57,229 nucleotides of DNA from Bacteroidales bacterium. GTDB lineage: Bacteria; Bacteroidota; Bacteroidia; Bacteroidales; ML635J-15. Every line of letters starts with the position of its first letter. The first letter of the stretch is position 1. The stretch covers positions 1 through 57,229 of the forward strand of contig JAQUBO010000001.1 in NCBI GenBank assembly GCA_028686735.1. Direction: 5' to 3'. A model generated the notes under the pieces. That model saw only the letters and a program-made list of their open reading frames with translations, searched no databases and was not told the origin of the DNA. A program made the translations under genes and the position numbers. This document shows, in pieces, positions 2,332 through 42,007 of the stretch.

Positions 2332-3603
2332 TTAATTAATAATTAATCTCTTTACAGTTCGTCCAAAAGAGGTTTCAATACTCATGGTATATATGCCTGA
2401 TTTAAAAGAGCTTACATCAAGCGTTTCAGTATTATTAACAATTTGAGACAAGACTAAACGACCTTCAATGCTATAAATATTAACACTTACTTCTAATTGT
2501 GTTTCAACCATAATGTACGAGCTTGCAGGGTTTGGATAAACAGAAATATTTTCTGTAATATTTTCATCAATATCCACCACCTCATCATAAGCAAACATCA
2601 GATTATCAACACAAAAATAGCCAGGTGTATTCATTCCCCAATCTCCATTATCTGATGAGCTTAAACTAAATAAAAGAGTATCAACTTGACCTAAAGTACC
2701 TAAATCAACATATTGCCATGTTTCAATTATATAATCTTTGTTATTATCTTCAAAACGGTAATCTGCAAGATAATAGTCTATAGTCCCAGTTTCGCTACCC
2801 TGATATTTCCCAGTTATTGTTAACATAAACCAGTCTTCATCATTTCCACTTTCTCCCCCAAACTTCTTAGCAACACCATCTCCATTTTTCATTGATAGGT
2901 AGGCATAGGTAGAATTTGTAACATGAATTCCTTTCATATTATAGTTACCATCATCGGCAAAACTAATCACAGACTCCCCAAAAAGATAGCTAACACCATA
3001 ATTTGCTCCACCTGATGCAAGAGTATCTATTCCTTGCCCAGTATAAGCTGCATATTGATTTAAATATCCAGCAGTTTCAATATCATTAACATTTGAATAA
3101 GCCCAACCACTCCATGAACCCCAATCGCTATTGTAAGAGTTCTCAAAAATGGCCATTCCAGAATTAAAATATCCCGTTTCATCAGAACCGTTCCAAAAAG
3201 AATCCTCTTCAAGTACTAAATCTTCAAAATCTACAATACTAAATTCCCCTTCAATTACAGGAAGTACACCAATCACAATTGTGTCAAGAATGACAGTTTC
3301 TAAATATGTTGCACTAAATATAACTATTGATTGTCCATAAGAAATAAAATCTATTTCTAAATTTGCATCAGTAATAACAGCTACTGCAACATCTTGATTG
3401 GTATTATCAATCATTTGATAACTAACTTCATTTTCTCCTACTTGAAAATTCTCGTTTAAATTAATAACTAAATTTGCATCATTTTCATAAGCCCAAATAT
3501 TTGCGATTGGATTTTCGACCAAATCGGTTTTTACTTGTGCCAATAATACAGAATTCACCAATACTGCACATAATAATAACAATAATTTAACAGTGTTTTT
3601 CAT
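2332..3603 (-). CDS. DUF4465-like surface protein with a T9SS type-A C-terminal sorting domain (candidate corrinoid-binding accessory protein)
   Basis: 423 aa with a signal peptide. The block DFEDL..SFWNGSDETGYFNSG..NSDWGSWSGWAYSNVND..NQYAAYTGQG..GGANYGVSY fits my memory of DUF4465. C-terminal domain VYPNPASSYIMVE...GIYTMSIETSFGRTVKRLIIN. It is the first ORF downstream of the riboswitch. Confidence 0.65.
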   Translation of the reverse strand: MKNTVKLLLLLCAVLVNSVLLAQVKTDLVENPIANIWAYENDANLVINLNENFQVGENEVSYQMIDNTNQDVAVAVITDANLEIDFISYGQSIVIFSATYLETVILDTIVIGVLPVIEGEFSIVDFEDLVLEEDSFWNGSDETGYFNSGMAIFENSYNSDWGSWSGWAYSNVNDIETAGYLNQYAAYTGQGIDTLASGGANYGVSYLFGESVISFADDGNYNMKGIHVTNSTYAYLSMKNGDGVAKKFGGESGNDEDWFMLTITGKYQGSETGTIDYYLADYRFEDNNKDYIIETWQYVDLGTLGQVDTLLFSLSSSDNGDWGMNTPGYFCVDNLMFAYDEVVDIDENITENISVYPNPASSYIMVETQLEVSVNIYSIEGRLVLSQIVNNTETLDVSSFKSGIYTMSIETSFGRTVKRLIIN

Positions 3604-3784: not shown

Positions 3785-3975
3785 TAATTTATCTCTCGCT
3801 TTTCACCCGAAAGCTACAATATTTTTGAATCGGCAGGTCTTCTGACTTGTTCTAGTTTTATCGCCTTCCCAACCGCCAGTCGGCAGTCAGTGGCAAGAGA
3901 GATAAAACCTTAATAGAACTTACAGCTACGGGGATAGTCCCTGATTTTCACAGGATTCCCTTTTAATCTATAAGA
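3785..3975 (-). promoter_or_regulatory. Cobalamin (B12) riboswitch
   Basis: The minus strand reads GGGAATCCTGTGAAAATCAGGGACTATCCCCGTAGCTGTAAG ... GCCACTG (3894..3888) ... TGGGAAGGCG ... B12 box AGTCAGAAGACCTGCC (3847..3832). All conserved cores are in canonical order. It lies about 180 nt upstream of the 2332..3603 start. Confidence 0.9.
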
Positions 3976-4106
3976 ACCGAATACATTTACAAATTAAGAC
4001 AAAAAAATTGGTATAAAATAATATTATGCGATTATTTTAAAATGTTTTTCAACAATTTTGGATCGGGTAAAGATTATATTGTGATTATTAGCGTATGTGT
4101 GTGTGA

Positions 4107-10532: not shown

Positions 10533-13022
10533 TTATTTTAATTTAACAATAGTAATTCCACTTCCGCCAAATTGAATATCCTCGTCATAACAATTTTGGA
10601 CTTGTGAAATTGTACGTAAAAAATCGCGTATATTTTTACGAAGTATTCCGTTTCCTTTGCCGTGTAATATTTTAAGTTCCTTAAATCCAAGCATCACAGC
10701 CTCATCTACAAGCTCAGTAATTTTTGCAACAGCCTCATCCACTCTTTCACCACGAACATCTATATATGGTTTAAAGTTCAACACCTTTTCGTTATAATTA
10801 AAATGTAATCCTTTAGCAGACCGATTTTGCTTTTTATATTCATCTTCGCTTACTTTTTGCAGTCTGCCTGTTGCGATACTTGTGTACATATTACCATAAC
10901 TTACGACTGCATTTTTTCTTCCAAGATCAATTACTTCACCAATAACCTCTTGCCCCTCAACACGAACTTTACTCCCAATATGAATTTGAGTCTTATCAAT
11001 TTTTACAAATTCAAGCTTTTTATTTTGTTCAAGATTACCAGTATCTTTGACTTGTTTTTTTCGTACTTTTTGTTCTTCCTGCTTTTTTTTATAATGTTGA
11101 TATTTCTGTCCTATCTCATCCTTTTGGTTTTCTGCTTTTATCTTAAAATCATTTTTAAAATCTTCAATTTCTTTACGTGCCTGTTTTGTTTTATCTTTAT
11201 TGGCGTTACTTTCTTTAATTTTTCTGATTGTATTCTCGATTTGCTTATTTACATCTTTAAGTAATTGCTCTGCCTCTTTTTGAGCCGCACCCATTATTTG
11301 CTTTTTCTTTAGCTTAAGGCTCTCTAACTCAATAATATTTTTTTCGATACTATCTTCTAGGATTTTTTCTTGTTTACGAATTTGTTGACGTTTCCTCTCC
11401 CAGTATTTTTTATCTCTCAGCACTCTTCTAAGAAACTTATCCATATTAGACTGATCGGTTCCTGCTTTCTCTTTAGTTTTTTCGATAATATTTTGCGGCA
11501 AACCTATTCTTTGAGCAATCTCAATCGCATAAGAGCTTCCTGGCATTCCAGACTCTAAAATAAAAGTAGGCTCCATTTTATTTTGGTCTATCAGCATGGC
11601 TGCATTTTGAATACCAGATGTATTAGAAGCCATAATTTTAAGATTTGAATAATGCGTAGTAATTATACCAAAACAATTTTTTGCATTTAACTCCTCGAGT
11701 ATTGCCTCAGCTATTGTTCCCCCAATAACTGGGTCTGTTCCAGATCCAAACTCATCAATAAGAATTAAAGTTTTATCATCTGCATTTTTCAAAAAATATT
11801 TCATATTTGTTAAATGTGAACTATAAGTGCTCAAATCGTTTTCTAAAGATTGTTGATCCCCTATATCCATAAAAATACCATCAAAAACCCCAATTACTGT
11901 TTGTCCTCCAACAGGTACGGGAAGCCCACATTGAACCATATATAAAATCAAAGCTGCTGTTTTTAAACTAACGCTTTTCCCTCCAGCATTAGGACCCGAT
12001 ATTAACAATATCCGATTATCAATATCAAGTTTAAAACTAGTAGGAACAATTTCCTTTTGCTCTTTTTTTAATGCAAGATAAAGAAGTGGATGTTTGGCGT
12101 TAAAAACATCCATTTGTGGACTTTCGTCAACAGCTGGTTTAATAGCTTGAATTGAAACCGAAAACACAGCTTTAGCACGCAACACATCTAGCTCAGCTAC
12201 CATATTAGCCATAGATACCAATTCATCTTGATAGGGTCTAAATTCGTTTGTAATGTCAAATAATATTTTTTGAATCTCCCTGTTTTCTTCAAATTCTAAT
12301 TCACGAATAGTATTATTTAATTCAACAACTTCGCGGGGTTCTATATAAGATGTTTTTCCACTTGCCGACTCATCGTGTATTAGTCCATCAATTTTTCTCT
12401 TAAAAGTTGATGCAATCGGAAGGACTAGTCTGCCGTTAACTAATGTCGCAGATAAATCACGATCTACCCAAGCTTTGTCTCTAATTTCAGTAAGAATATT
12501 ATTAAGACTTTTACTAACAGAGTTTTTTGATGCCAATAAGTTTTTTCGTATCTCTTTCAGTCTAGGAGAAGCATTATCTTTAATAGTCCCATTTTTTGAC
12601 AAAACGGCATCAATTCTATCAGAAAGATATTTTGGAAACACTAAACCTTTTATCTTATTCTGTAAGCTCGGAAACTCATTTTTATCATCTTTTTTAAAAA
12701 AGACTAGTAATGCTTTACTATTATCAAGCAAAATACGAATATCAATAAGCTCAGATACATTTAAAGTACTATGTTCTACTTTTAATTTAGATATTATTCC
12801 ATCTGTTTCGGGATACGCTTTTACCGGATAATTATCCTTAAGGTTATAAATTGCTATCATTTCTTGGATTTCGTCCAATACTAATCTGATAGAGTCAACA
12901 TTATTAGAGAACTGCATCTCATCAACTAATAGTTTTGCAGCACTACCCAAGCACGCAGCTTTTATCTTACTACGAATTATGTCAAACCCTATTTTGCTTT
13001 CAAAATTTTGTGGATATATCAT
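10533..13022 (-). CDS. mutS2: Endonuclease MutS2 (MutS domain V ATPase plus C-terminal Smr)
   Basis: 829 aa. Walker A GPNAGGKS, a K/E-rich coiled coil, and Smr tail DVRGERVDEA...LHGKGNGILR. Confidence 0.9.
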   Translation of the reverse strand: MIYPQNFESKIGFDIIRSKIKAACLGSAAKLLVDEMQFSNNVDSIRLVLDEIQEMIAIYNLKDNYPVKAYPETDGIISKLKVEHSTLNVSELIDIRILLDNSKALLVFFKKDDKNEFPSLQNKIKGLVFPKYLSDRIDAVLSKNGTIKDNASPRLKEIRKNLLASKNSVSKSLNNILTEIRDKAWVDRDLSATLVNGRLVLPIASTFKRKIDGLIHDESASGKTSYIEPREVVELNNTIRELEFEENREIQKILFDITNEFRPYQDELVSMANMVAELDVLRAKAVFSVSIQAIKPAVDESPQMDVFNAKHPLLYLALKKEQKEIVPTSFKLDIDNRILLISGPNAGGKSVSLKTAALILYMVQCGLPVPVGGQTVIGVFDGIFMDIGDQQSLENDLSTYSSHLTNMKYFLKNADDKTLILIDEFGSGTDPVIGGTIAEAILEELNAKNCFGIITTHYSNLKIMASNTSGIQNAAMLIDQNKMEPTFILESGMPGSSYAIEIAQRIGLPQNIIEKTKEKAGTDQSNMDKFLRRVLRDKKYWERKRQQIRKQEKILEDSIEKNIIELESLKLKKKQIMGAAQKEAEQLLKDVNKQIENTIRKIKESNANKDKTKQARKEIEDFKNDFKIKAENQKDEIGQKYQHYKKKQEEQKVRKKQVKDTGNLEQNKKLEFVKIDKTQIHIGSKVRVEGQEVIGEVIDLGRKNAVVSYGNMYTSIATGRLQKVSEDEYKKQNRSAKGLHFNYNEKVLNFKPYIDVRGERVDEAVAKITELVDEAVMLGFKELKILHGKGNGILRKNIRDFLRTISQVQNCYDEDIQFGGSGITIVKLK

Positions 13023-13395
13023 TAAAAACTATTTTTTACAAAAATATAAAATCTTTTCACAAAGAGTAGCGAGAAAAAGTATGCTTTCAATCTAAGCACA
13101 GACATTAGATTCTTTAGTGTGTGTCCATAATGTCCAATTTACTCACAATGGAATTTTAATTTAGCGGTGTTCGTGATACCGCTTCGCTAAATTCTGCAAT
13201 TCTCTGCTGGCTAGCAGATCAATGTATTGCGTTATGTTTGCATTGGTAATCAGTTACTCGTCAACTAACAGAGTAAACTACTGATTGCCAATACTTCGCA
13301 AACCTTAATCTCAAAGATTACAGATTAAACACTTAACTTTATTGACAAATATTAGAGATTAATCTCGTCCTTAAGCTAGCGGAAAAAAAATCGAC

Positions 13396-13562
13396 ATTAA
13401 TCCCATTTTTGTTGGAGAAGAAAAATAAAGATTAACCCCGTTTTTGTTGGAGAATAAAAATAAAGATTGACCCCGTCCTTTGTTGGAGAAGAAAATAAAG
13501 ATTAACCCCGTCCTTTATTGGAGAAGAAAAACAAAGATTAACCCCGTCCTTTAGGGCGGGGG
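13396..13562 (+). repeat. 35-bp micro-array, 4 contiguous units plus a terminal hairpin (macro-unit 1)
   Basis: Units resemble ATTAACCCCGTTTTTGTTGGAGAATAAAAATAAAG and have no spacers between them. The array ends in CCCCGTCC-TTTA-GGGCGGGG. Confidence 0.9.
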
Positions 13563-13991
13563 CAAGAACATAAACGAGAAAAAGGGCTTTAGCCCTGACA
13601 ATAATAAAAACTTTTAGGTTCTAAGTTCATGGCTAAAGCCAATAATAATTATAATTTATTCACCCCGACCTAAAGGTCAGGGTAAATAATAAATAGAAAA
13701 TAACAGTAAAATAATGTCCATCTATAATGTCAAATTTACTCACAATGGAATTTTAATTTAGCGGTGTTCGTGATACCGCTTCGCTAAATTCTGCAATTCT
13801 CCGCTGGCTAGCAGATCAATGTATTGCGTTATATTTGCATTGGTAATCAGTTATCCGTCAGCTAACGGAATAAACTCCTGATTGCCTATACTTCGCAAAC
13901 CTTAATCTCAAAGATTACAACTTAAACACTTAACTTTATTGACAAATATTAGAGATTAATCTCATCCTTAAGCTAGCGGAAAAAAATCGAC

Positions 13992-14193
13992 ATTAATCCC
14001 ATTTTTGTTGGAGAATAAAAATTAAGATTAGCCCCGTTTTTGTTGGAGAATAAAAATAAAGATTAACCCCGTTTTTGTTGGAGAAGAAAAACAAAGATTG
14101 ACCCCGTCCTTTGTTGGAAAAGAAAAATAAAGATTAATCCCGTCCTTTGTTGGAGAAGAAAATAAAGATTAACCCCGTCCTTTAGGGCGGGGG
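13992..14193 (+). repeat. 35-bp micro-array, 5 units plus a terminal hairpin (macro-unit 2)
   Basis: Same unit as above. The array is 35 bp longer than in macro-unit 1. Confidence 0.9.
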
Positions 14194-14622
14194 CAAGAAC
14201 ATAAACGAGAAAAAGGGCTTTAGCCCTGACAATAATAAAAACTTTTAGGTTCTAAGTTCATGGCTAAAGCCAATAATAATTATAATTTATTCACCCCGAC
14301 CTAAAGGTCAGGGTAAATAATAAATAGAAAATAACAGTAAAATAATGTCCATCTATAATGTCAAATTTACTCACAATGGAATTTTAATTTAGCGGTGTTC
14401 GTGATACCGCTTCGCTAAATTCTGCAATTCTCTGCTGGCTAGCAGATCAATGTATTGCGTTATGCTTGCATTGATAATCAGTTCCTCGTCAACTAACGGA
14501 GTAAACTCCTGATTGCCTATACTTCGCAAACCTTAATCTCAAAGATTACAACTTAAACACTTAACTTTATTGACAAATATTAGAGATTAATCTCGTCCTT
14601 AAGCTAGCGGAAAAAAATCGAC

Positions 14623-14859
14623 ATTAAGCCCATTTTTGTTGGAGAATAAAAATTAAGATTAGCCCCGTTTTTGTTGGAGAATAAAAATAAAGATTAACCC
14701 CGTTTTTGTTGGAGAATAAAAATAAAGATTAACCCCGTTTTTGTTGGAGAAGAAAAACAAAGATTGACCCCGTCCTTTGTTGGAGAAGAAAATAAAGATT
14801 AACCCCGTCCTTTATTGGAGAAGAAAAACAAAGATTAACCCCGTCCTTTAGGGCGGGGG
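14623..14859 (+). repeat. 35-bp micro-array, 6 units plus a terminal hairpin (macro-unit 3)
   Basis: Same unit as above. The array is 70 bp longer than in macro-unit 1. Confidence 0.9.
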
Positions 14860-15289
14860 CAAGAACATAAACGAGAAAAAGGGCTTTAGCCCTGACAATA
14901 ATAAAAACTTTTAGGTTCTAAGTTCATGGCTAAAGCCAATAATAATTATAATTTATTCACCCCGACCTAAAAGTCAGGGTAAATAATAAATAGAAAATAA
15001 CAGTAAAACAATGTCCACCTATAATGTCAGATTTACTCACAATGGAATTTTAATTTAGCAGTGTTCGTGACACCGCTTCGCTAAATTCTGCAATTCTCCG
15101 CTGGCTAGCAGATCAATGTATTGCGTTATGTTTGCATTGGTAATCAGTTACTCGTCAGCTAACGGAGTAAACTCCTGATTGCCAATACTTCGCAAACCTT
15201 AATCTCGAATATTACAACTTAAACACTTAACTTTATTGACAAATATTAGAGATTAATCTCATCCTTAAGCTAGCGGAAAAAAAATCGAC

Positions 15290-15456
15290 ATTAAGCCCAT
15301 TTTTGTTGGAGAATAAAAATTAAGATTAGCCCCGTTTTTGTTGGAGAAGAAAAATTAAGATTAATCCCGTCCTTTGTTGGAGAAGAAAAATAAAGATTAA
15401 CCCCGTCCTTTGTTGGAGAAGAAAATAAAGATTAACCCCGTCCTTTAGGGCGGGGG
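15290..15456 (+). repeat. 35-bp micro-array, 4 units plus a terminal hairpin (macro-unit 4)
   Basis: Same unit as above, with the same length as in macro-unit 1. Confidence 0.9.
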
Positions 15457-15931
15457 CAAGAACATAAACGAGAAAAAGGGCTTTAGCCCTGACAGTAATA
15501 AAAACTTTTAGGTTCTAAATTCATGGCTAAAGCCAATAATAATTATAATTTATTCACCCCCGACCTAAAGGTCAGGGTAAATAATAAATAGAAAATAACA
15601 GTAAAATAATGTCCATCTATAATGTCAAATTTACTCACAATGGAATTTTAATTTAGCGATGTTCGTGATACCGCTTAGCTAAATTCTGCAATTCTCCGCT
15701 GGCTAGCAGATCAATGTATTGCGTTATATTTGCATTGGTAATCAGTTACTCGTCAGCTAACGGAGTAAACTCCTGATTGCCAGCACTTCGCAAACCTCGA
15801 ACTCGAATATTATGAATCACACACTGAGTGTATTGACAAACACCATTTAATATCTGAGAAATAACAAATTCCTTTTTTCTACAACATAATTTTATAATTT
15901 TGTAAAATAAAATAAAATTTAGTCGAATAAA

Positions 15932-16336
15932 ATGAAACCACTCGAAATAATTAGCAAAACTGGTAAGATTTCTAACTCTGATGAACGAATTTTTAATTTT
16001 TTTGCAGATTTACGCAATATTTCCCGTTTAGTACCACCCGATGTACAAGACTGGGAAGCAAACGAAGATACTTGTAGTTTTTCAGTTAAAGGTCAAAAAA
16101 TGTCTTTAATTATTATCGAACGCACAGCCTATAAAACTATCAAAATAAAAGCGGCAGACAATTCTGCTTACAATTTAAATTTATGGATACAACTTAAAAG
16201 CATTTCGGCTTACGAAACTGCTGTACGTATAGTTATTAGAGCAAACCTTAATATGATTATGCGTGCTGCTGTAAAAAAGCCACTACAACAAGGGCTTAAT
16301 CAGATTATTGATTACATGAAACAACTGCCCTACTAA
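15932..16336 (+). CDS. Hypothetical protein (possibly an SRPBCC/START-like fold)
   Basis: 134 aa, clean ORF. A TAATTTTG -7-type box lies at 15895..15902. The fold guess is weak. Confidence 0.4.
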   Translation: MKPLEIISKTGKISNSDERIFNFFADLRNISRLVPPDVQDWEANEDTCSFSVKGQKMSLIIIERTAYKTIKIKAADNSAYNLNLWIQLKSISAYETAVRIVIRANLNMIMRAAVKKPLQQGLNQIIDYMKQLPY

Positions 16337-28716: not shown

Positions 28717-31700
28717 TTATTCTTGATATCTGCTTCCGAACCATTTTAATACCTTCTCTCCAACACCAGGGACTTTAATATGAATAATATACATCCCGTT
28801 TGCAATAAGATTACCTCTTTTGTCGGTCATATCCCACTGGTAATAAGTATTACTGTCATTTTTTGTCAATCTATTAATCAATAATCCTGAAGCATTAAAG
28901 ATTGAAATCTCACAAATTTTTGGCAGATTTATAATTCTAACATAGTTGTCGTAAGTGTAATTCCCAGAGTGGTTTCCCCAATAATATGGGTTTGGAACAA
29001 TATTGATTATATCCAGAGCTTCGTTTAGAACTTCTGAATTTGAAGTTTCTGCTTGCAAACCATGTGTTGAGAATTTAAATACTGGCAAATTATCATTTTG
29101 CGGATTTTCAACTGCAAATTCATTCATTCCTTTATGATAAGGAGTTGCTACCCTAAGTTTGATTCTTATATCACAAGCAAGAAAATCAAATTCAGGATTT
29201 TGGATTGGAATTGCACACCACATTGCCGATGCCCATGCATAACTAAGTGATGTGTTACCACTACCCGTACTTTCATATTCAAGTAGGTTGTTATAAATCC
29301 ATTGACATGAATCGTAATGTGGTGCATTATATTGTGGGTTATTAAAATTTTGATTATTCCCCATAATATAAATATAGTGCTTGCCTCCGAATAGTGGTTC
29401 ATTTGTTACATCGACTCCAGCTGAGGGATTCCACATCATGTCTGTTCCGTTTTCACTTTTTAACCATGAATCTTCGCCATAAACAATATTTAGCCTTTCA
29501 CCCGTACGTTGGTCGATTGCATATCCAGGGAACCATCCCATACCGTGAGTGGCTGAATTATCTACATTTCCATTTTTATTAATAGACGCACTCTTACGAA
29601 GAGAAAATTTATGGGCATTACCTATTGAAAGATAGTTTTGGGTAGGAACCATTTGTTCTTGAAATCCATATTCATTAGTTATCCACTCGTTTTCGTGCAT
29701 TTCGACAACACATGATCGTGTCCATTTCGATTTGTCGTTTGTAATAATTAAATCTACGCTTGATAGTGGTTCATATCTGGCGATACTCTGGAAGTTTCGT
29801 GCTTTAGTGAGTGATGGACCATATTTGTAAGAACTAGCAAATTTGTATGGTGCCCAAGTTCCTCCAATAATATTCTCAAAATATTCATTATTATCATAGC
29901 CTAATAAATCATCATAACTTTTATCTGCTCCTCCTACATTAAATTCTCCAAGTTTATTGTAATAATTACCTACTCTAATCCAGTTGTAGGCATCAAAACC
30001 ATCGCGGTTTGCAATAAAATTAAGCCATGGTTTTTCGGGATTATCGAAAATAATCTCAGCCGATAATAATCCATTTTGAAATTCGTTTTGATCTTTATAT
30101 CCTGCAAAGTTTTGAGCAGTTATATTAATTGAAAATCCCCAATCTGGAAATATTTGTTCATAATTTTGGTTGTACTTTATTGTGTTATCGCTGTAGATTG
30201 TGTCTCCAGAAGAATTGTAAATATAATAATCAAAAGGAATAAAAAACAACTCTGATAATCCGGCGGATATTGTACCGCACATTCCGGTTGAATTTGTTTC
30301 AACATTACGGAACTTGAGAGTATAATTATCAGCTGGTAAATTTAAAGGGTCAATAATTTTTATAATAATTGGTCCTTTGCCACTTTTGTATGTTCTGTTA
30401 GCTATTTTCCAAGGATAACCCGACATTATTTCTAAAAGGCTTTCATTGGTTAATTCAATTATGCAATTAGCGTTGCCATGTCCTTCTGTCATTGTAATTT
30501 CTGGTTCAAAACCATATCCTGTATTAAAAACGGTTCCGTTATTTTCTATTGTTGGGTCGTGCGGAGTTGCTGTGTATGTTTTAATATTATTTTTTCCTAA
30601 TAGATAGCAGTTTTTGTTACCATACAAATCATTTATATTATTAGTATTAAATTGTAGTGTTTTGTTTGAAGCGTAAGCTATTACAGTGTACCAATAATCC
30701 TTTTGATTTATTAAGTTGTTGTTTTCAGAAAAATAATCTTTTTCAATAACAAAACTGTGAGAAATTCCCTCGTTATTACCGTCAACTTCTAACTGAGGCT
30801 TATATTCAGATGTTTGTGCATCAAAAGAGTAGTTAACGATACTACTTAAACTATCTTTAATGTCGCATTGAAAAACTTCACGGACAAGTTCAGTATTATA
30901 CCTTTCTTTTAGTAAATCAACATTTGGGTTTTTTAGCTGGAAAACCTGATATCCTTGAAAACGGAAATACTCATCGCAAGGCGATATACTGCCATCACAT
31001 TTTATATTATAGTCTCTTTCTTTGTATTGGTTTAGATAATTGTTAGAATTTGGATTATTAGATATATGGAATATCAGTTTTTTGTTTGTTTCAATAATTT
31101 TTAGTTCTGGTGCATCTGGCCCGTTAGTAATTCTAAAGCAATTATCGAACATATTTTGAGCTATGTCATCAACTCTTTTCATTACTTCTACTGATTTATA
31201 ATTTCCTCCGTTTATAGATCTTCCATAAACAGCACTCATTGTCAGACTATTTACTGCACCAGGCTTAAATGTAACAGGTCCAGTAGAAATAACAAAACGA
31301 ACATCTCTCGGTGCATTAGGAGTAGCATCTGGTCCTAATGGTTGTTCCTCTGACCAGCCTGACATAATAACTCCATTTTGTCCATAACCGCAAATATCGC
31401 TTGTAGGATTTCCTGAGTACATAAAATTTGTAGGCACATCTGTTGAACCGTCTGAATAATGTCCAGTACCTCCATACATTACATGCGTACCATCTAACCA
31501 ACGTGATGTTAAATAATAATAATAATGTTCTTTTTCAATTGGAAAAATAGTATTTAGATTAACTCCAGTACCTTGCCCATTAAAATGTAAAAAGTTTGTA
31601 GCTCCCCATCTTTCATTGTCTATAATTCCATCTTCAAAATTTTGTCCGTTGATATTTCCATTCATTATATCCCCTAAGCTACAATTCAGCACTTTTTGGC

Positions 31701-32829
31701 CGTCAATTATTTCATAGCTGGTTTCATTATCTTGACCGTCACTATCTTTAAACAGGCCTTCGAAAAAATCTAAACCCACAGCAGGAGGTGAATTTCCATA
31801 TCCTATTATGCCTTCAGCAGTTTGATCGTAATTGTCTCCATTATATATGTAGCCAAGTCCTCTACCAACATCACAGCCAATATAGTCATCTTTTGGATAT
31901 CCAATATCTGCATCTGTCCAAAATCCAACATAAGCATCATAAAGAGTTTGCGTTGATCTATTTATTATTTCATAATTATAAAAAGTGAGATCGTTAATAG
32001 GAGTATTTGTTGCATAAGCATAAGCCATAGCTCTTATTTCTAAACCAATTATTTGACTACCTGAGTTAGTGTGTGATTTTCCTGCATCATTAAAAACAAA
32101 CCAAATTGCTTGGTCTCCTTTTAGTGATTGCTGCTTATTTCTTGGTTTTAGACAATCAATATCATCTGTAATACTGTCTTCAGGGAATTCAAAATAAGGA
32201 AAGTCTCCGTCATAGGGATTATAATATCCATCCTTGTTATTATCCCAAAAAGGGGCAAGGTACATATCGTAACCTCCTTCAGGCCCATGAGCAGGCCAAT
32301 TTAAAATAACATCTGGTATTGTATAAGAAGAGTAATTTTTTGAGTCACAATTTGGGTCTTGTTCGCACTTCCACCACATCCTAAATTCGCTAACTTCAGC
32401 CTTTGTAATACTCCATAATTTATCGTATTGCCGGCAAATATCAATACTTGTTGCACCTATGTCTGAACCAGAAACAATTAGTGGTCCGGGAGCAAAATCG
32501 ACACCGCCTTGTCTAAACATTGTAGTAGCGACTTTTATTTGATTGTTTGCATCTTTCCCTCCAATCCATATTGATCCTGCAAATAATGCATGAGCACCAC
32601 CCCCTTTAGGAACTTCATAATTTGCTCGTCCGTTTAAATCCCACCACATATCGCCAACAGAATGAATTTGAGTTCTAACATTGTTTATGTTAAGTTCTGC
32701 TGAAGTTCTGCCTTCTTCACAATTTGCCGTTAATCTTGTTGGTATTGTGTGTTTTTTATTTTGTGAGACACAAATATTAGATAGAACTAGTAATCCAATA
32801 AACGGGATAATCTTAACAACTAGTTTCAT
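28717..32829 (-). CDS. Giant Cys-rich secreted protein, paralog B, with an atypical C-terminal sorting-type domain
   Basis: 1370 aa with a signal peptide. Colinear with 34186..38370 through long identical blocks (ILNWPAHGPEGGYD, GWFPGYAID.RTGERLNIV.GEDSWL, YDSCQWIYNNLLEYE, FAVENPQNDNLP). Tail VPNPYY...YVRIINLP..CEISIFNASG...QWDM...GMYIIHIKVPGVGEKVLKWFG. Confidence 0.8.
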   Translation of the reverse strand: MKLVVKIIPFIGLLVLSNICVSQNKKHTIPTRLTANCEEGRTSAELNINNVRTQIHSVGDMWWDLNGRANYEVPKGGGAHALFAGSIWIGGKDANNQIKVATTMFRQGGVDFAPGPLIVSGSDIGATSIDICRQYDKLWSITKAEVSEFRMWWKCEQDPNCDSKNYSSYTIPDVILNWPAHGPEGGYDMYLAPFWDNNKDGYYNPYDGDFPYFEFPEDSITDDIDCLKPRNKQQSLKGDQAIWFVFNDAGKSHTNSGSQIIGLEIRAMAYAYATNTPINDLTFYNYEIINRSTQTLYDAYVGFWTDADIGYPKDDYIGCDVGRGLGYIYNGDNYDQTAEGIIGYGNSPPAVGLDFFEGLFKDSDGQDNETSYEIIDGQKVLNCSLGDIMNGNINGQNFEDGIIDNERWGATNFLHFNGQGTGVNLNTIFPIEKEHYYYYLTSRWLDGTHVMYGGTGHYSDGSTDVPTNFMYSGNPTSDICGYGQNGVIMSGWSEEQPLGPDATPNAPRDVRFVISTGPVTFKPGAVNSLTMSAVYGRSINGGNYKSVEVMKRVDDIAQNMFDNCFRITNGPDAPELKIIETNKKLIFHISNNPNSNNYLNQYKERDYNIKCDGSISPCDEYFRFQGYQVFQLKNPNVDLLKERYNTELVREVFQCDIKDSLSSIVNYSFDAQTSEYKPQLEVDGNNEGISHSFVIEKDYFSENNNLINQKDYWYTVIAYASNKTLQFNTNNINDLYGNKNCYLLGKNNIKTYTATPHDPTIENNGTVFNTGYGFEPEITMTEGHGNANCIIELTNESLLEIMSGYPWKIANRTYKSGKGPIIIKIIDPLNLPADNYTLKFRNVETNSTGMCGTISAGLSELFFIPFDYYIYNSSGDTIYSDNTIKYNQNYEQIFPDWGFSINITAQNFAGYKDQNEFQNGLLSAEIIFDNPEKPWLNFIANRDGFDAYNWIRVGNYYNKLGEFNVGGADKSYDDLLGYDNNEYFENIIGGTWAPYKFASSYKYGPSLTKARNFQSIARYEPLSSVDLIITNDKSKWTRSCVVEMHENEWITNEYGFQEQMVPTQNYLSIGNAHKFSLRKSASINKNGNVDNSATHGMGWFPGYAIDQRTGERLNIVYGEDSWLKSENGTDMMWNPSAGVDVTNEPLFGGKHYIYIMGNNQNFNNPQYNAPHYDSCQWIYNNLLEYESTGSGNTSLSYAWASAMWCAIPIQNPEFDFLACDIRIKLRVATPYHKGMNEFAVENPQNDNLPVFKFSTHGLQAETSNSEVLNEALDIINIVPNPYYWGNHSGNYTYDNYVRIINLPKICEISIFNASGLLINRLTKNDSNTYYQWDMTDKRGNLIANGMYIIHIKVPGVGEKVLKWFGSRYQE

Positions 32830-33010: not shown

Positions 33011-34159
33011 TTATAATCTGCTAGAGCCCTTATCAGAAGCTTCTCCACCTAATGTAATTCTTGCACCAAATGTATGAATACCACCAAATGGGTTTGTAAA
33101 CCTATATGAATAATCAACAGCGATTACCGATTTCTTTTCTTTATTAATTGGGACTTGCAATGTTAGACCAGCTGTTGGTCCAGTTAAAGCTGTAGCTCGG
33201 GTGGCCACATCAAAAATACCGTCTTCATAAATAAAACCACCTCTTAAAAATAAGTAGTGTTTAAATCCGTACTCTAAACCTATATGATACTGGTCTTTAG
33301 TAAACGAGTTGGACGTAAAGTTTGCAGCCACAATTAAGTTATGATCTGAATATACCTCTTCTCTTACTTCATCAATTTTAGGAGCAAGTTTAAAGTGATA
33401 TGAAATTCCTATTTTTATAAGTGAAGGCAACTCAAACTCTTGACTTCTATGTTCAATGGTCATACTTGTTCCATTTTCAGAAAAACCAGTAAAACTCATT
33501 CCGTCTCCAGAATATTTCATTGTAGTTCCAACGTTTTTCATAGTTATACCAAATCGAAAATTATCTCGATTTCTATTCCCAGCTTTGTCTCTGCCAAGCC
33601 CAGTTACATATTGGATACCAGCATCTATTGCAAATCCAGAAGAACTAACGTTAAAAATATTTTGATTAAGCATTTTAACAGTGATTCCCCCATAAATACT
33701 ATTTGAAAATTCGCGTGCATATCCTAATCCAATCACATTATAGGTAGGACTAAAAGTACCAATACCACCTTCGGGTAAATCAGCAGTAGTAATTTCGATA
33801 TCCCCCCAATTCATGTTCATCACACTAACGCCAAGCACACCCGTTTCACCAACTTTTGCAGCAAAGCCTCCACTATTGATAACAACATCAGCTCCTCCTA
33901 ACCATTGAGTATTAGTAAAAGCAAATTCTGTTTTAGGAGTAAATGCTAATCCTGCAATATTTTGATGCATTGCTTCGAGTCCACCAACACATGCTACGTT
34001 TGCATCACCCCACCCTGAGCTTCGTGCCCATGGGTTTATCAACAATTCTGATGCTCCATTAGATCCTATACGCTGCTCATTACCAGCAAAGGTTTTTGTT
34101 GATATTAAGCTTATTGAAACTGTTATCAGTATTGCTGCAATTAAATATAATTTTTTCAT
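33011..34159 (-). CDS. PorV/PorQ-family (FadL-like) outer-membrane beta-barrel
   Basis: 382 aa with a signal peptide. GASELLINPWARSSGWGDANVACVGGLEAMHQNIAGLAF resembles the PorV N-terminal signature (..LLI.P.AR..G.GDA.VA.....A...N.A..AF). Confidence 0.65.
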   Translation of the reverse strand: MKKLYLIAAILITVSISLISTKTFAGNEQRIGSNGASELLINPWARSSGWGDANVACVGGLEAMHQNIAGLAFTPKTEFAFTNTQWLGGADVVINSGGFAAKVGETGVLGVSVMNMNWGDIEITTADLPEGGIGTFSPTYNVIGLGYAREFSNSIYGGITVKMLNQNIFNVSSSGFAIDAGIQYVTGLGRDKAGNRNRDNFRFGITMKNVGTTMKYSGDGMSFTGFSENGTSMTIEHRSQEFELPSLIKIGISYHFKLAPKIDEVREEVYSDHNLIVAANFTSNSFTKDQYHIGLEYGFKHYLFLRGGFIYEDGIFDVATRATALTGPTAGLTLQVPINKEKKSVIAVDYSYRFTNPFGGIHTFGARITLGGEASDKGSSRL

Positions 34160-34185: not shown

Positions 34186-37100
34186 TTAGAAATTATTTAA
34201 GTCAATTGGACGCAAGGCTCCAAACCATTTCACTATTTTTTCTCCCACTCCAGGTACCTCAACATGTACAATGTAAACACCACTGGCAATACTAATACCG
34301 TAAGAGTTTTTCATATCCCACTGAATAAATGTATCTGAATTGTCCTTCGCATAACGACGCACTAATCCACCACTTGCGTTAAAAATAGATATAACACATT
34401 TTCGAGGTAGATTTGTTATTCTAACATAGTTATCTAACTGCGTATTCTCATAATATGAATTACCATAATATGGATTTGGAACAACTCTTATTAAATCAAG
34501 AGCATCTACTGCTTGATCGTGGTCGTCTCTAATGGTTTTTACGTCAGAAGTATTAAATGTAAACATTGGTAAATTATCATTTTGTGGATTTTCCACAGCA
34601 AACTCTTCTTTAGCCAAATGGTAAGGTGTTGCTACTCTAATTTTAATTTTCACATCTGTTTCAAGCAACTCAAAATTTGGATTTAACATTGGTATTGCAC
34701 ACCACATTGCAGATACCCAAGCTCTATTAAGAGAAGTAGATGCAAGTCCAGTGGTTTCGTATTCTAACAAATTGTTATATATCCATTGACACGAATCATA
34801 AGCAGGTGCATTATAATATGGATTAGAGAAGTTTTGATTATTACCCATAATATAAATAAAATGTTTACCTCCAAAAAGTGGACCAGTCCTTTCTTCATAA
34901 CCGCTTGTTGGATTCCAAAGCATATCCTGTCCATTTTCGCTAGCTAACCAAGAGTCTTCGCCAAAAACGATATTCAATCTTTCACCAGTTCTTACATCAA
35001 TAGCATATCCTGGAAACCAGCCTAAACCATGTGTTCCAGAATTATCTGGATTACCATCTTTGTCAACCGATGGGCTTTTACGTAAAGCAAACTTATGAGC
35101 CCCACCTATTGACCTATAATTTTCAACTGGGCTGCTTTCTAATAAGAAACCACATTCTTCATCTTTGGCCCATTCATTTTCACAAGTTTCAACAACACAT
35201 GATCTGGTCCATTTTGATTTATCACTTGTAATAACTAAATCGACACTAGAAATTGGTTCGAATCTTAGAATATTTTGGAAATTACGTGCTCCTTTTAGAG
35301 CCAGACCATGCTCAAATGCACTAACAAAACGATAAGGTGCCCAAGTACCATTAAGTATCTTTTCAAAATACTGTTTATTATCATACTCAATAATATCATC
35401 GTAACTATCATCAGCTCCACAAGTAGTCAATTCCCCTTCTTTATTTTTATAAGTACCTAATCTAATCCAATTAAAATAATCCTGTCCGTCGCCATCTGGA
35501 AGAAAACGCAACCAAGGTTTCGTTGGATCATCAAATGTAATCGAAGCTTGAAGAAACCCGTTTTGAAAATCGTTTCGACCTTTACCGCAAGCAAAATCTT
35601 TTTGAGCAATACTAATTGAAATACCCCAATCAATAAATAATTGTTCATTTGCATGACCATATTGAACAGCAATTTCACTATCAACAACATCGCCTGCAGA
35701 GTTTATTATCTCATAATCAAAAGGTACAAACTGCGAGAGAGACAATTCCGAAGATCTAACACCGCATATACCTGTAGAATTAACAGTAACATTTTTAAAT
35801 TTTAAAGTATAAGAATCTTCTGGTACGTTTAAAGGGTCAATTATTTTAACATTAATAGGACCTTTTCCGTTTTCATAAGTTCTATTTGTTGCTTTCCAAG
35901 GCGAGCCAGACATTATTTCGTCAATACTCTCCTGAGTAAGTTCAAGTATATTATTACCATTACCATGTCCTTCTATCATAGTTATTTGGGGTCCATAACC
36001 ATAATCACCCTGAACAATAGTACCTCCATTTTCGGGATCATTAATATGTGGAATAGCTGTATAACGTTTAATATTATTACGACCAGCCAAATATGGTTTT
36101 TTCTGCCCATTAAAGGTTTCCTGAACAGACTGATTATACAACAATGACTCGTTATAACCGTAAGCAAGTACAGAATAATAGTATTCTCTATTATTAATTA
36201 AACGAGGATCGCCACCAGTGGCAAATAAGTCGTTATCAAGTATAAAAGTATGAATAATGCCTTGATTTGTTCCATTAACCTCTTCTACTGGAACATTAGC
36301 CCCAAGCTCATCAGACCAAGTATAATTTACTATCTGTGTTATATTGTCTTTAATATCACACTGAAAAGCTTCACGAACCAAAGCGTCGTTATATCTATCA
36401 GAAATACTAACAGTTGGTCTTTTGTATTGGAATACCTGATATCCTTGAAATCTATAATATTCATCACATGGATCAATATCTGGAGTACATACAATTGATG
36501 GGTCTTTTTCGATATAAGCCTCAAGATAATTATTACTACTAGGTTTATTATATATATGGAAAATTAGTTTTTTATCCATCTCAATAATATTTAATTCTGG
36601 AGCATCTGGTCCATTAAGCACACGAAAACAGTTTTCAAATAGTATTTGAGCTTTATCGTCAGCTCTACGAACCGCTTCAACTGAAGCCCAAGGTCCACCA
36701 GATGGAGCACGAGCATAAACAGCTCCGATTGTAATATCGTTTACTGCACCTGGATATAAAGTAAAAGGTCCAGCAGACTGAACAAAACGTACATCTCTAG
36801 GTGAATTAGGAGTAGATCCAGGACCTAAAGGTTCTTCTTCGGACCAACTACCTTGGGGAATACCTCCCTGTCCCCAACCACAAGGGTCTGTTGTTGGAGT
36901 GCCAGGAAACATAAAATCAGTTGGCATATTAGTGTCAGCATTACCAGAAAAATGTCCAGTACCACCATAACAAAGCTCAGTATTATCTAACCAAAACCCT
37001 GTTATATAATTATAATGTTCTCCTGCTGTTACAGGGTCAAGAGTATTAGGATTATCTCCAGTACCACTATTATTAAAATACAAAAATCTACGCATACCCC

Positions 37101-38370
37101 AACGTTCGTTATCAACAACTCCATCTTCAAAGTTAAGACCATTAATATTTCCGTTTAAGATATCTCCTTTATCACAATTTAAGACCTTAACACCATTCAC
37201 GGTATCAAAACTTGTAGAATTATCTAATCCATCAGGATCTTGATAAGGACCTTCAAAAAAGTCAATCCCAATAGCTGGAGGCTGTTCACCGTAACCTTGA
37301 ATACCGTCTGCGGTCTCATCATTATTATCTCCATTATACATATACCCTAAACCACGTAAAACATCGCAACCGCAGAAATCATCTTTAGCATACCCAAGAT
37401 CCGCATCTGTCCAAACACCAAAATAAGTTTCAAACAAAGTATATGTAGATCTATTTATAATATTATAATTATAAAAAGTCATGTCATTAAGTTCATCATT
37501 TGTTGTAAAAGCAAACGCCTGAGCTCGAATTTCCATACCAATAGAGGCACCTCCTGTTTCTGTATGGATATTACCTTTATCATTATACACCCACCATAAA
37601 GTTTCGTCTCCAAAAAGTTTTGGTGCTCTATTACGAGGTCTTAAACAATCGGGATCGTCTGTTATACCGTTATTAACAAATTCATAATACGGAAAATCGC
37701 CCATAAGAGGATTATAATAACCATCGCCATCAACATCCCAAAACGGGGCTAGGTTATAATCATAACCACCTTCTGGTCCATGAGCAGGCCAATTTAATAT
37801 AATATCAGGAATACTATAACCTGGAAACTGTTCTTCGGTGTTACACTCAGGATCTTGCGAGCAAGCATACCACTCTCTAAATTCTTTCACCATTTCCTTA
37901 GTTATAAAAAAATGTTTATCATATTCGCGACAAATATCCTGCGTAACTGTTGCAATGGCCGACCCAGAGGTAATTAGTGGACCAGGCCAGTAATCGATAC
38001 CTCTCTGACGAAATTTTTGAGCAGCTAGTTTAAGCTGCCCATTAGCATCTTTACCACCAATCCAAATAGCTCCAGCAAAAAGAGCACTAGTTGTACCATC
38101 AGCAGGAACAATATAATATGCTTTACCTTGCAAATCCCACCACATATCACCAGCAGTATGGATTAAGGCTCTAACATTGTTTACACCAAGTTCAGTAGAT
38201 GTTTGCCCTGGCTCACACAACTCAGTTGCACGCGGAGTAGGGATAGCATCAGCCTGAGCACCTTGCCACTTATCAGCTAGCATGTAATTTGATATTACGC
38301 TCAAGACCGCAATAAATAATATTCTTTTTAGGCTTTTCATATCTCGTTTATTCTTATTCATTATAATCAT
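34186..38370 (-). CDS. Giant Cys-rich secreted protein, paralog A, with an atypical C-terminal sorting-type domain
   Basis: 1394 aa in the track. The Met at 38340 (MKSLKRILFIAVLSVISNYMLA) gives the cleaner signal peptide. Tail VPNPYYGNSYYE..YVRITNLPRKCVISIFNASG...QWDM..GVYIVHVEVPGVGEKIVKWFG. Confidence 0.8.
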   Translation of the reverse strand: MIIMNKNKRDMKSLKRILFIAVLSVISNYMLADKWQGAQADAIPTPRATELCEPGQTSTELGVNNVRALIHTAGDMWWDLQGKAYYIVPADGTTSALFAGAIWIGGKDANGQLKLAAQKFRQRGIDYWPGPLITSGSAIATVTQDICREYDKHFFITKEMVKEFREWYACSQDPECNTEEQFPGYSIPDIILNWPAHGPEGGYDYNLAPFWDVDGDGYYNPLMGDFPYYEFVNNGITDDPDCLRPRNRAPKLFGDETLWWVYNDKGNIHTETGGASIGMEIRAQAFAFTTNDELNDMTFYNYNIINRSTYTLFETYFGVWTDADLGYAKDDFCGCDVLRGLGYMYNGDNNDETADGIQGYGEQPPAIGIDFFEGPYQDPDGLDNSTSFDTVNGVKVLNCDKGDILNGNINGLNFEDGVVDNERWGMRRFLYFNNSGTGDNPNTLDPVTAGEHYNYITGFWLDNTELCYGGTGHFSGNADTNMPTDFMFPGTPTTDPCGWGQGGIPQGSWSEEEPLGPGSTPNSPRDVRFVQSAGPFTLYPGAVNDITIGAVYARAPSGGPWASVEAVRRADDKAQILFENCFRVLNGPDAPELNIIEMDKKLIFHIYNKPSSNNYLEAYIEKDPSIVCTPDIDPCDEYYRFQGYQVFQYKRPTVSISDRYNDALVREAFQCDIKDNITQIVNYTWSDELGANVPVEEVNGTNQGIIHTFILDNDLFATGGDPRLINNREYYYSVLAYGYNESLLYNQSVQETFNGQKKPYLAGRNNIKRYTAIPHINDPENGGTIVQGDYGYGPQITMIEGHGNGNNILELTQESIDEIMSGSPWKATNRTYENGKGPINVKIIDPLNVPEDSYTLKFKNVTVNSTGICGVRSSELSLSQFVPFDYEIINSAGDVVDSEIAVQYGHANEQLFIDWGISISIAQKDFACGKGRNDFQNGFLQASITFDDPTKPWLRFLPDGDGQDYFNWIRLGTYKNKEGELTTCGADDSYDDIIEYDNKQYFEKILNGTWAPYRFVSAFEHGLALKGARNFQNILRFEPISSVDLVITSDKSKWTRSCVVETCENEWAKDEECGFLLESSPVENYRSIGGAHKFALRKSPSVDKDGNPDNSGTHGLGWFPGYAIDVRTGERLNIVFGEDSWLASENGQDMLWNPTSGYEERTGPLFGGKHFIYIMGNNQNFSNPYYNAPAYDSCQWIYNNLLEYETTGLASTSLNRAWVSAMWCAIPMLNPNFELLETDVKIKIRVATPYHLAKEEFAVENPQNDNLPMFTFNTSDVKTIRDDHDQAVDALDLIRVVPNPYYGNSYYENTQLDNYVRITNLPRKCVISIFNASGGLVRRYAKDNSDTFIQWDMKNSYGISIASGVYIVHVEVPGVGEKIVKWFGALRPIDLNNF

Positions 38371-41300: not shown

Positions 41301-42007
41301 AGCTCCACCCCACCAAAATACTTAGAAGTAGGTCCTTTTGTTGTAATAGAAATTGCTCCACCGGTAGCATCACCATATTGAGCTGGCAAGCCTCCAGTAA
41401 TTACCTGAACCTGCTCAATCGCAGATTTTGGAACAGAACTTGAGCCTCTTACCTTTACACCGTCCACATAATACACAGTACCTTCAGAACGTGCACCTCT
41501 AATTGAGCCTACCTCACCATCTTCAGAATACACACCACCAACTGTAGTTGCAACTGCTGCAGCCGAACGCCCAGGCATTTTTGCTATATCCTCAGATCCT
41601 ACTGTTCCTCCTGATGCTGTTTGGTCTTTAGCAATTAAAGGCACCTTGTACTCCTTAATTTCTACTTCACCAAGTATCTCTGCCGAGGCGTTTAGTTTAA
41701 AATTCTGGAAAGTAATACTTCCTCCAGGAATTTGAACGCTATTGTACTGTAGTGTAGCATACCCCACATACGAGGCAGACACTGTGTACTTACCGGCTGG
41801 TATAGGTTTAATACTATAATTACCGTCAAAGTCGGTCATTCCTCCGGTAACAACATTGCCATTCTCTTCAATCGTCACGTTCGCAAACGGGATTGGCTCT
41901 CCAGTTGTTGCATCACTAATGGTACCATTTAATGTTCCCTGAGCAAACAACCCTACACTTGCCCCTGCAAGCGCCATAATAATTAGTAGTAATTTTCGTA
42001 TCATCAT
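38375..42007 (-). CDS. Oversized TonB-dependent-receptor-like protein (CarboxypepD_reg + plug + large barrel), not SusC-type
   Basis: 1210 aa with a signal peptide. GTLNGTISDATTGEPIPFANVTI..DFDGNYSI..GKYTVSASYVGY is the regulatory-like domain. GSIRGARSEGTVYYVDGVKVRG...GGLPAQYGDATGGAISITTKGP is the plug. The C-terminus is RLGVQFSF. Confidence 0.8.
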   Translation of the reverse strand: MMIRKLLLIIMALAGASVGLFAQGTLNGTISDATTGEPIPFANVTIEENGNVVTGGMTDFDGNYSIKPIPAGKYTVSASYVGYATLQYNSVQIPGGSITFQNFKLNASAEILGEVEIKEYKVPLIAKDQTASGGTVGSEDIAKMPGRSAAAVATTVGGVYSEDGEVGSIRGARSEGTVYYVDGVKVRGSSSVPKSAIEQVQVITGGLPAQYGDATGGAISITTKGPTSKYFGGVELVTSQFLDPYGYNLGGLMLSGPIWTVEEEGSNRKRTIAGFLLSVEGSLVKDPSPSSVGEWRANENVLEDIRNNPLQLVQTSEGAIIYQNTDYIRDDGFQNYKTRENAESKSFNVAGKIDISPIRDLNLTFGGTIDYRDQRAYSYSNQLFNSENNGNWKYNNWRVYGRLTQKFRDNSESEKEAIIKNPYYTIQVDYSKTFSKYYNKDFDDNFFEYGHIGTFNTTPEKFYGYGTDTLTGKDAYLLQTWFYEIKDFEAGSLNPDLARYTEQYFEYFDERYRKDVVSVMQNGGLLNGMGAPSIYGLWASPGNPYTSYTVSDATQFRVSAAGSADIKNHEISLGFEFEQRNDSYYGVSPFGLWTLARSLTNYHILERDLNNPIEYRDENGIFLDTIDYPRLYDASSQSKFDRKLRESLGLEVNSLDWIDIDSYDPESLDISWFSPDELFNQGSSYVAYYGYDYKGDKLNYKPTFDDFFNKTTEEGYLARPIAPFEPNYIAGYIQDKFAFKDLIFNIGVRVDRYDANQMVLKDQFTLHDAYTVGDADERGLITSTDHPSNIPDNAVVYVNDISSPSAINGYRVGSVWYDATGAEIENPKQISSSTGIAPYLLDSKEQLNSSAFEDYKPQIVVMPRVSFSFPISDEALFFAHYDILSKRPSYAARLNPLDYLFIRQNNDNLLNNPNLKTEKTIDYELGFQQKLGNTSALKLSAFYREMRDMQQAIAVYGAYPVNYYTYGNIDFGTVKGFGVTYDLRRTGNVTLRASYTLQFANGTGSSFESGAAIVKSDKPNLRTTIPLDFDQRNNFAITLDYRYGGKVSGTPYNGPKIGGKSIFANTGVNFVVNSGSGSPYTKRNKPNNGTIIGSLNGSRKPWRTTINMRLDRDIKLKLAEKKEDGSKEKYGYLNIYLEISNLFNTANVTGLYEYTGNPDDDGFLNFADYQTSIATQNDEEAYRNYYAMYINSPYNYSLPRTIRLGVQFSF

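Follow-up and report, generated by a model that had tools for sequence, protein, structure and literature searches.

The window analysed here is a complete 57,229-bp contig of a metagenome-assembled genome (MAG) annotated as "Bacteroidales bacterium", an assignment with which the type IX secretion sorting domains on several of its proteins are consistent. Between the divergent mutS2 gene and a gene of the SRPBCC family, the contig carries a nested tandem array of approximately 2.74 kb. Units of approximately 600 bp are repeated 4.4 times head-to-tail, as assembled in this MAG contig, and each complete unit contains a smaller array of 35-bp units. On balance, we regard this array as non-coding modular repeat DNA of the repetitive extragenic palindromic (REP), bacterial interspersed mosaic element (BIME) or BOX type, which was inserted in this lineage and then amplified, and not as an array of genes. 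The two-hairpin core of the units belongs to a small family that is found in several uncultured Bacteroidales, where it adjoins or lies upstream of genes or remnants of Y1 HUH transposases (IS200-like, subclass 1.2). The core is probably a single-strand recognition structure of an enzyme of this subclass.

Organization of the nested array

Each macro-unit is composed of a 230-bp palindrome-rich module (5' module), a 35-bp micro-array, and a head-to-head doublet of two-hairpin elements (3' module), in that order. The anchor sequence TTTACTCACAATGG occurs only at positions 13138, 13735, 14366, 15032, and 15630, which gives macro-periods of 597, 631, 666, and 598 bp. Arrays were located with Tandem Repeats Finder (TRF), which placed the 35-bp arrays at 13408-13552, 14004-14183, 14623-14844, and 15302-15446, and the micro-units were counted by manual splitting. 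The four arrays contain 4, 5, 6, and 4 micro-units of 35-36 bp, respectively, with one degenerate unit before each, and these counts explain the differences between the macro-periods. The original prediction, an earlier reading of the same DNA, had described this nesting with the same five anchors, periods, and micro-unit counts, all of which were reproduced. It had also described the fifth copy as incomplete, which is correct; more precisely, this copy consists of the 5' module only, and its final part has diverged from the other copies. The features of the array are as follows (strand is given where assigned).

13128..13724, + strand, macro-unit 1, 597 bp
13725..14355, + strand, macro-unit 2, 631 bp
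14356..15021, + strand, macro-unit 3, 666 bp
15022..15619, + strand, macro-unit 4, 598 bp
15620..15850, + strand, partial unit 5, 5' module only, the final ~60 bp diverged (~70% identity to the other copies in the alignment)
13725..13962, 5' module of copy 2, four local hairpins and the palindrome GAGATTAATCTC
13128-13365, 14356-14593, 15022-15259, and 15620-15850, 5' module of the other copies
13381..13551, micro-array 1, degenerate unit and 4 units, the final unit merging into hairpin H1
13978..14182, micro-array 2, 5 units, GGAA replacing GGAG in the unit at 14113
14609..14848, micro-array 3, 6 units
15275..15445, micro-array 4, 4 units, composition unlike that of arrays 1-3
14166..14337, 3' module of copy 2, head-to-head doublet (H1-spacer-H2)(H3-spacer-H4)
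13535-13706, 14832-15003, and 15429-15601, 3' module of the other copies
14173..14192, + strand, H1, CCCCGTCC-TTTA-GGGCGGGG, T.G at stem position 6; also at 13542, 14839, and 15436
14215..14226, + strand, H2, GGGC-TTTA-GCCC, ~22 nt after H1; also at 13584, 14881, and 15478
14262..14271, - strand, H3, GGC-TAAA-GCC, inverted counterpart of H2; also at 13631, 14928, and 15525
14294..14313, - strand, H4, CCCCGACC-TAAA-GGTCAGGG, inverted counterpart of H1; also at 13663, 14960, and 15558

The 35-bp unit corresponds to the 5' arm of H1 together with the A-rich sequence upstream of H1. The tetranucleotide GGAG, which the original prediction placed in every unit, is present in 18 of the 19 units, the exception being the unit of micro-array 2 listed above. 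The units are contiguous, with no intervening spacers; a clustered regularly interspaced short palindromic repeats (CRISPR) array, in which unique spacers would split the units, was rejected on these grounds. The composition of the micro-arrays varies among the macro-copies, which indicates that units have been gained and lost independently, after the macro-duplication, and that the arrays are still turning over. The macro-copies differ by distinct substitutions, and the lengths of homopolymers also vary.

In the 3' module, H1 and H4 are 20 nt in length and have 8-bp stems with one non-Watson-Crick position, and H2 and H3 are 10-12 nt in length. The left half of the module aligns to the reverse complement of the right half, and the 3'-module model has a match to itself in reverse orientation. 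When single-stranded, the DNA of the module could form one long hairpin, in which H1 is paired with H4 and H2 with H3; its DNA folding compared with shuffled sequences gives z = -4.5 (+ strand) and -6.6 (- strand). On the minus strand, H2 is followed by TTTTTCTCGTTT and is terminator-like. The array contains 11 terminator-like sites, compared with 2.1 expected, all of which are on the minus strand, three of them ending each unit; the plus-strand hairpins have no U tails. GC stems with a TTTA or TAAA loop occur 14 times in the 57-kb window, always within the array. The original prediction took T:G positions in two stems as a hint that the plus strand is transcribed. H1 and the long stem do have T.G on the plus strand, whereas the wobble of H4 is T.G on the minus strand (C.A on the plus strand), and the substitutions among the copies appear pairing-neutral. 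Since H3 and H4 are inverted copies of H2 and H1, the wobble positions cancel and the strand hint is lost.

The 5' module makes up approximately 40% of each unit. The stems named in the original prediction and the palindrome were found in all copies; the arm that it described as approximately 100 nt in length is present as a hairpin at 13242-13293, but is only 52 nt in length. RNA folding of the module compared with shuffled controls gives z = -5.0 on the plus strand and -3.0 on the minus strand. In the RNAalifold structure of the five copies, 1 compensatory change is seen versus approximately 12 broken pairs, and 8 A.C mismatches on the plus strand (equivalent to G.U on the minus strand) are seen versus 4 new plus-strand G.U pairs. 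Substitutions among the copies disrupt predicted pairs no less often than they preserve them, and these counts give no strand signal and no sign of selection on pairing. In one hairpin of copy 2, pairing is kept via 2-3 coordinated changes. The macro-copies are so alike, and their changes so neutral in appearance, that covariation provides no evidence for an RNA.

The two-hairpin core in other Bacteroidales and its probable Y1 transposase link

The two-hairpin core, ATTAACCCCGTCC-TTTA-GGGCGGGG..AAGAACATAAACGAGAAA..GGGCTTTAGCCC, is the part of the macro-unit that recurs in other genomes. The H1-spacer-H2 arrangement is common to the window and at least four other Bacteroidales contigs (L001, L007/L011, L009, and L010), with the consensus ATTAACCCCGTCC-TTTA-GG(G/T)CGGGG..AAGAACATAAACGAGAAA..GGGCTTTAGCCCTGA, approximately 90% identical across the loci; the intergenic DNA around the core is unalignable among them. 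A degenerate core pattern gave matches in two other Bacteroidales MAGs (L007; L008, which is the same as L001; and L009) and in two JGI metagenome contigs (L010 and L011), and 0 matches in viral contigs. H1 is kept in L001, L007, L009, L010, and L011, and the unpaired spacer of the core shows the same degree of conservation as the stems. Across genomes, the core varies too little for covariation within it to be informative.

These related loci also form nested arrays. L010 contains 60-bp units repeated 5.2 and 3.8 times, nested within a larger repeat; L009 contains 57-bp units repeated 3.7 times; and L001 contains a 375-bp macro-repeat, the apparent 602-bp spacing of which is inflated by a 100-N scaffold gap. 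This 100-N run is located at L001 3876-3975, within the repeat array. The repeated segment of every array includes an approximately 35-nt motif, TTGGNG(A/G)AAAAA..A(C)ATTAACCCCGTCC, which is an A-rich stretch followed by the 5' arm of H1, and the 35-bp unit of the window is exactly this piece. L007, L009, L010, and L011 all end in core repeats, so the family repeatedly interrupts assembly in these MAGs and explains why contigs break and scaffolds contain gaps in several Bacteroidales MAGs.

Evidence for a link to Y1 transposases was found in the related arrays. A frame-interrupted open reading frame (ORF), ..FVLVDDYFAA*VSESQINKVRKYIIKQDEHHIKRHFTEEYDK.., is present in the macro-units of L001 and at the end of L009; it is a pseudogene of the C-terminal half of Y1_Tnp, its only Pfam match. 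The match of the single sequence to PF01797 is weak (E = 0.019, profile positions 62-121 of 121), and single-sequence searches of the protein database and the PDB with this remnant returned nothing. Only a profile of three variants of the pseudogene was successful; it matches short proteins (E = 1.6e-15 to 2e-13) that carry PF01797 or adjoin an ORF with PF01797. The pseudogene carries YI(I/M)(K/N)QDEHH, i.e., Y---Q--HH, the signature of TnpA_Y1 subclass 1.2, which occurs mainly in Bacteroidetes and Cyanobacteria and reportedly at low copy number (PMC6006769). In L012, the identical H2 12-mer GGGCTTTAGCCC is located approximately 50 nt upstream of a Y1 gene and is preceded, at a distance of approximately 24 nt, by a GC hairpin. 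In L016, a split subclass-1.2-like Y1 gene lies between direct copies of CCACGATC-TTTA-GATCGTGG with AAACCCAGTGGGTTT (915-980 and 1525-1585), and these flanking hairpins run counter to the published claim that subclass 1.2 generally lacks terminal structures.

Two further repeats were observed in the related contigs. A 237-bp direct repeat of L001 (2118-2354 and 4361-4597, 94% identical) brackets an SRPBCC gene, a tRNA-Val gene, and the array with the 375-bp period. Its copies have inverted termini of approximately 17 bp (GGCAAACGCATACTTTT / AAAAGTATGCGTTTGCC) and many internal hairpins, and it looks like a second element, similar to a miniature inverted-repeat transposable element. A common module, AAAGTTATCTATTTGAGGTTGGA(A/G)TTTCACC(G/A)CTCC..ATGA.TTT.TTG, is located after the arrays in L009 (540-620) and L001 (4300-4360), both of which are contigs of MAG STF1_21, and suggests the presence of larger composite elements.

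Insertion of the array and weighing of explanations

The closest relatives found, L002 and L003, have the same mutS2-SRPBCC synteny, with an SRPBCC protein that is 87% identical, and the intergenic region between the two genes is 193 bp in length. The flanks of the window align to the intergenic region of L002 until approximately position 13117, and the alignment resumes at approximately 15857. The 193-bp region of L002 contains no counterpart of the array; a search of this empty site for a relic of the 5' module gave local alignments no better than those of shuffled sequences. The array-free gap of the relatives thus identifies the array as a lineage-specific insertion and expansion of approximately 2.74 kb. 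No terminal inverted repeats (TIRs) or target-site duplications (TSDs) were seen when the array borders were compared with the empty site of L002. The genes around the array are intact, and the locus is arranged as follows.

13118..15856, complete inserted array, ~2.74 kb, between the mutS2 and SRPBCC promoter regions
10533..13022, - strand, mutS2 (MutS_V + Smr), diverging from the gap
13039-13046, - strand, Bacteroidetes-type -7 box of mutS2, TATTTTTG, gene-proximal and external to the array
15932..16336, + strand, SRPBCC-family gene, 134 aa, diverging from the gap
15895-15902, + strand, -7-like box of the SRPBCC gene, TAATTTTG, external to the array

In the mechanism that we propose, the hairpins would serve as single-strand DNA recognition sites for a Y1 enzyme, and the arrays would grow and shrink on two scales. 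Amplification probably proceeded by Y1 cleavage and strand transfer at sites close to the hairpins, a model that has been proposed for the tandem amplification of BIME-2 (PMC3333891), by replication slippage and unequal recombination between repeats, which have been discussed for boxB arrays (PMC3049150), or by both. The A-B-A-B-A-B-A-B-A' order, with its diverged terminal A', could be the result of unequal exchange between two older 5' modules, followed by homogenization or concerted evolution. At the locus, the array would separate the divergent mutS2 and SRPBCC genes by a 2.7-kb spacer, and the stacked minus-strand terminator-like hairpins may, as a side effect, block read-through towards mutS2 or insulate it from upstream antisense transcription.

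Several observations weigh against the interpretation as REP/BIME/BOX-type repeat DNA with a Y1 partner. Subclass 1.2 genes are generally reported to be without IS200-like terminal structures or REPs (PMC6006769), and no Y1 gene or remnant was found on the window contig, either by tblastn with the Y1 remnant or by Pfam analysis of 26 ORFs; an autonomous IS200/IS605 element, which would encode a Y1 transposase (PF01797) and/or TnpB, was rejected on the basis of the same tblastn search and the absence of any ORF over 46 aa from the array. Neither hairpins of this kind nor nhmmer matches were found in the other 54 kb of the contig, unlike the case of classical high-copy REPs. A conserved unpaired GTAG (or CGTC) at the hairpin foot is the tag that defines REPs (PMC3733652); no unpaired GTAG or CGTC tag is present in the array, in which CGTC, as read from the sequence, is only found paired inside the H1 stem. 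The interpretation does not account for the 5' module, which has no homologue in any collection or locus searched: nhmmer searches against 16 loci gave chance-level matches only, and exact-pattern scans gave 0 matches with a 22-mer in the JGI metagenomes and 0 matches with a 20-mer in viral contigs. The conservation of the unpaired spacer would be compatible with a functional RNA or a protein-binding site as well. Moreover, variable sites are rarer in the 3' module (6 of 191) than in the 5' module (23 of 283; p = 0.03), which points weakly to stronger constraint on, or stronger homogenization of, the family core.

A more far-reaching interpretation, which we consider unlikely, is that the core is the missing DNA partner of subclass 1.2 and the arrays are traces left in vivo when that enzyme nicks and transfers strands under the direction of the hairpins (rolling amplification), i.e., a new REPtron-like system with tandem products, or that such modules make up an expressed array of non-coding RNAs (ncRNAs) or sponges. 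It is rather unlikely that the locus is simply an array of structured ncRNA genes, in which the 5' module would be an ornate RNA, the 35-bp repeats a protein sponge (GGAG/A-rich on the plus strand, U-rich/CUCC on the minus strand), and the GC hairpins the 3' ends. The folding scores of the 5' module on the plus strand (z = -5.0) and the 3' module on the minus strand (z = -6.6) would suit such genes, as would the three minus-strand terminator-like hairpins that close each unit, a -7-like box TAAATTTG on the minus strand in three of the five copies, the pairing kept in the copy-2 hairpin, and the high conservation of the core, unpaired spacer included, across genomes. However, the 5' module shows an excess of broken over compensated pairs with no strand preference and is missing from the closest relative and from all collections searched, the array is a recent lineage-specific insertion, and U tails are absent from the plus-strand hairpins. 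The unit contains only half-sites of the Bacteroidetes promoter consensus, with no internal promoter that combines the two boxes, and sigma-70-type promoter matches are not enriched (14 versus a shuffle expectation of 10.9). A scan against Rfam 15, one of the checks named in the original prediction, gave no match in the array at the gathering score and nothing credible at E <= 10. RSV_PBS, the best sub-threshold match (21 bits versus a 47-bit cutoff), was rejected as chance matches to H2..H4. The gap contains no tRNA or tmRNA.

A protein-binding array at the DNA level, of the iteron, centromere, or nucleoid-structuring type, would recruit a DNA-binding protein to the approximately 35-nt motif, repeated 4-6 times at a spacing of 35-60 bp. 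Repetition of the same motif in three independent genomes, despite units of 35, 57, and 60 bp, and the equal conservation of unpaired sequence and stems are in line with this explanation, and binding of IHF, gyrase, and Pol I is known for REP/BIME elements (PMC3333891). We nevertheless consider it improbable, given that the spacing is out of phase with the DNA helix and that no Rep, Par, or initiator gene is located nearby; absence of the array from a close relative, in turn, implies that it has no essential chromosomal role. A replication origin was rejected, and an iteron or centromere, one of the analogies of the original prediction, is not supported: the array contains no DnaA boxes (<=1 mismatch), and the cumulative GC skew is monotonic, with no inflection. 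BLASTN of one unit returned no match to plasmids or phages. It is quite improbable that the copy numbers are an assembly artefact, with only one or a few units present in reality and mis-resolved metagenome repeats producing the 4.4 x (4-6) structure. The sequence is a MAG contig, related arrays are located at contig ends or contain an N gap, and the homopolymer-length differences between copies could be sequencing errors; on the other hand, distinct substitutions and micro-array compositions would not be created by collapsed or duplicated reads, the surrounding genes are intact, and nested arrays of the same family are found in independent assemblies. Tandem type I toxin-antitoxin cassettes similar to the long direct repeats (LDRs) of E. 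coli, or another array of small proteins, were suggested by the superficial resemblance of head-to-tail intergenic units of approximately 600 bp. This explanation is effectively refuted, as no ORF of at least 30 aa is conserved across the copies. No ORF in the gap exceeds 46 aa, and the one of this length occurs in a single copy, in line with the original prediction, in which no ORF was listed for the gap; the sole recurring small ORF, of 15 aa, is non-hydrophobic (MSIYNVKFTHNGILI) and altered in copies 1 and 4.

Outside the array, the contig carries a cobalamin riboswitch (RF00174, 101.8 bits; 3815-3996, - strand) upstream of the gene for a DUF4465 protein with a type IX sorting tail (2332-3603, - strand). 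Two ORFs without a Pfam match, of 1370 aa (28717-32829, - strand) and 1394 aa (34186-38370, - strand), adjoin a PorV-like protein (33011-34159) and a TonB-dependent receptor (38375-42007). In a 206-aa ORF (47571-48191, - strand), the ribosomal L27 domain covers residues 2-81 only, and the remaining approximately 125 residues represent a C-terminal extension or read-through. The only tRNA of the contig is tRNA-Met (CAT) (55466-55540, + strand).

Relation to known repeat systems

If the Y1 link is true, the TTTA-loop hairpins H1 and H2 are a testable substrate for a Y1 HUH subclass without a known DNA partner, and REP/BIME-type genome structuring extends to uncultured Bacteroidales, where it takes an unusual form with two levels of tandem repeats. 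If the array is merely neutral amplified repeat DNA, it is a curiosity with local effects on insulation and on the spacing of mutS2 and its neighbour.

The earlier view that no described element class has this architecture was too strong. The arrangement of a module, a variable number of micro-repeats, and a second module is that of the pneumococcal BOX element (PMC3049150), and tandemly amplified REP doublets constitute BIME-2 (PMC3333891). Among the four analogies of the original prediction, the BIME-like mosaic is the one favoured here, in view of the inverted doublet and of a core that recurs by Y1 remnants and forms arrays.

The array resembles the BIME-2 and REPIN elements of Proteobacteria, which are associated with REP-associated tyrosine transposases (RAYTs), in its short imperfect GC palindromes, inverted doublets, and conserved linkers, and in the association with a Y1 HUH transposase, which is seen here in related loci; for their amplification, Y1 cleavage and strand transfer has been proposed (PMC3333891, PMC3116915). 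Sequence homology to the enterobacterial Y/Z2 REPs, which come from a different phylum, is not expected. As in BIME-2, the doublets are in tandem and variable in copy number; the four doublets of the window are interleaved with other modules. Unlike REPs and REPINs, the array has no unpaired GTAG/CGTC tag, and its hairpins are not dispersed at high copy number on this contig. The Y1 protein associated in related loci is of subclass 1.2 (Y---Q--HH) and not of class 2, in contrast to the RAYTs, and neither the macro-unit of approximately 600 bp with an unrelated 230-bp module nor the nested two-scale amplification has a counterpart in BIME-2 or REPINs.

The similarity to BOX (boxA-(boxB)n-boxC) lies in the fixed end modules that flank a variable micro-array, in the richness in stem-loops, in a size of up to approximately 640 bp, and in the unstable copy number of the micro-array (PMC3049150). 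However, BOX elements belong to another phylum, with no sequence relation expected, and are dispersed single insertions with TIRs and TSDs, whereas the composite described here is itself in tandem. With IS200/IS605 elements and palindrome-associated transposable elements (PATEs), the array shares subterminal imperfect hairpins, a conserved non-Watson-Crick position, and strand asymmetry, and the related L001 and L009 arrays contain a Y1 remnant between hairpin modules. It differs from IS200/IS605 in that no transposase, tnpB, or omega-RNA is present in the window, neither the ends nor the target site can be identified, and the units are in tandem and not dispersed. The E. coli LDRs are similar as tandem intergenic units of approximately 500-600 bp, but the array has neither a conserved small hydrophobic ORF nor a recognizable promoter pair.

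The ingredients of the array are known: imperfect palindromes, inverted doublets, a variable internal micro-array, tandem amplification, and association with Y1. It is their combination that is unusual, with two-level nested composites of approximately 600 bp that are clustered, hairpins that carry no GTAG/CGTC tag, and, as the apparent partner, a Y1 subclass described to date without cognate repeats.

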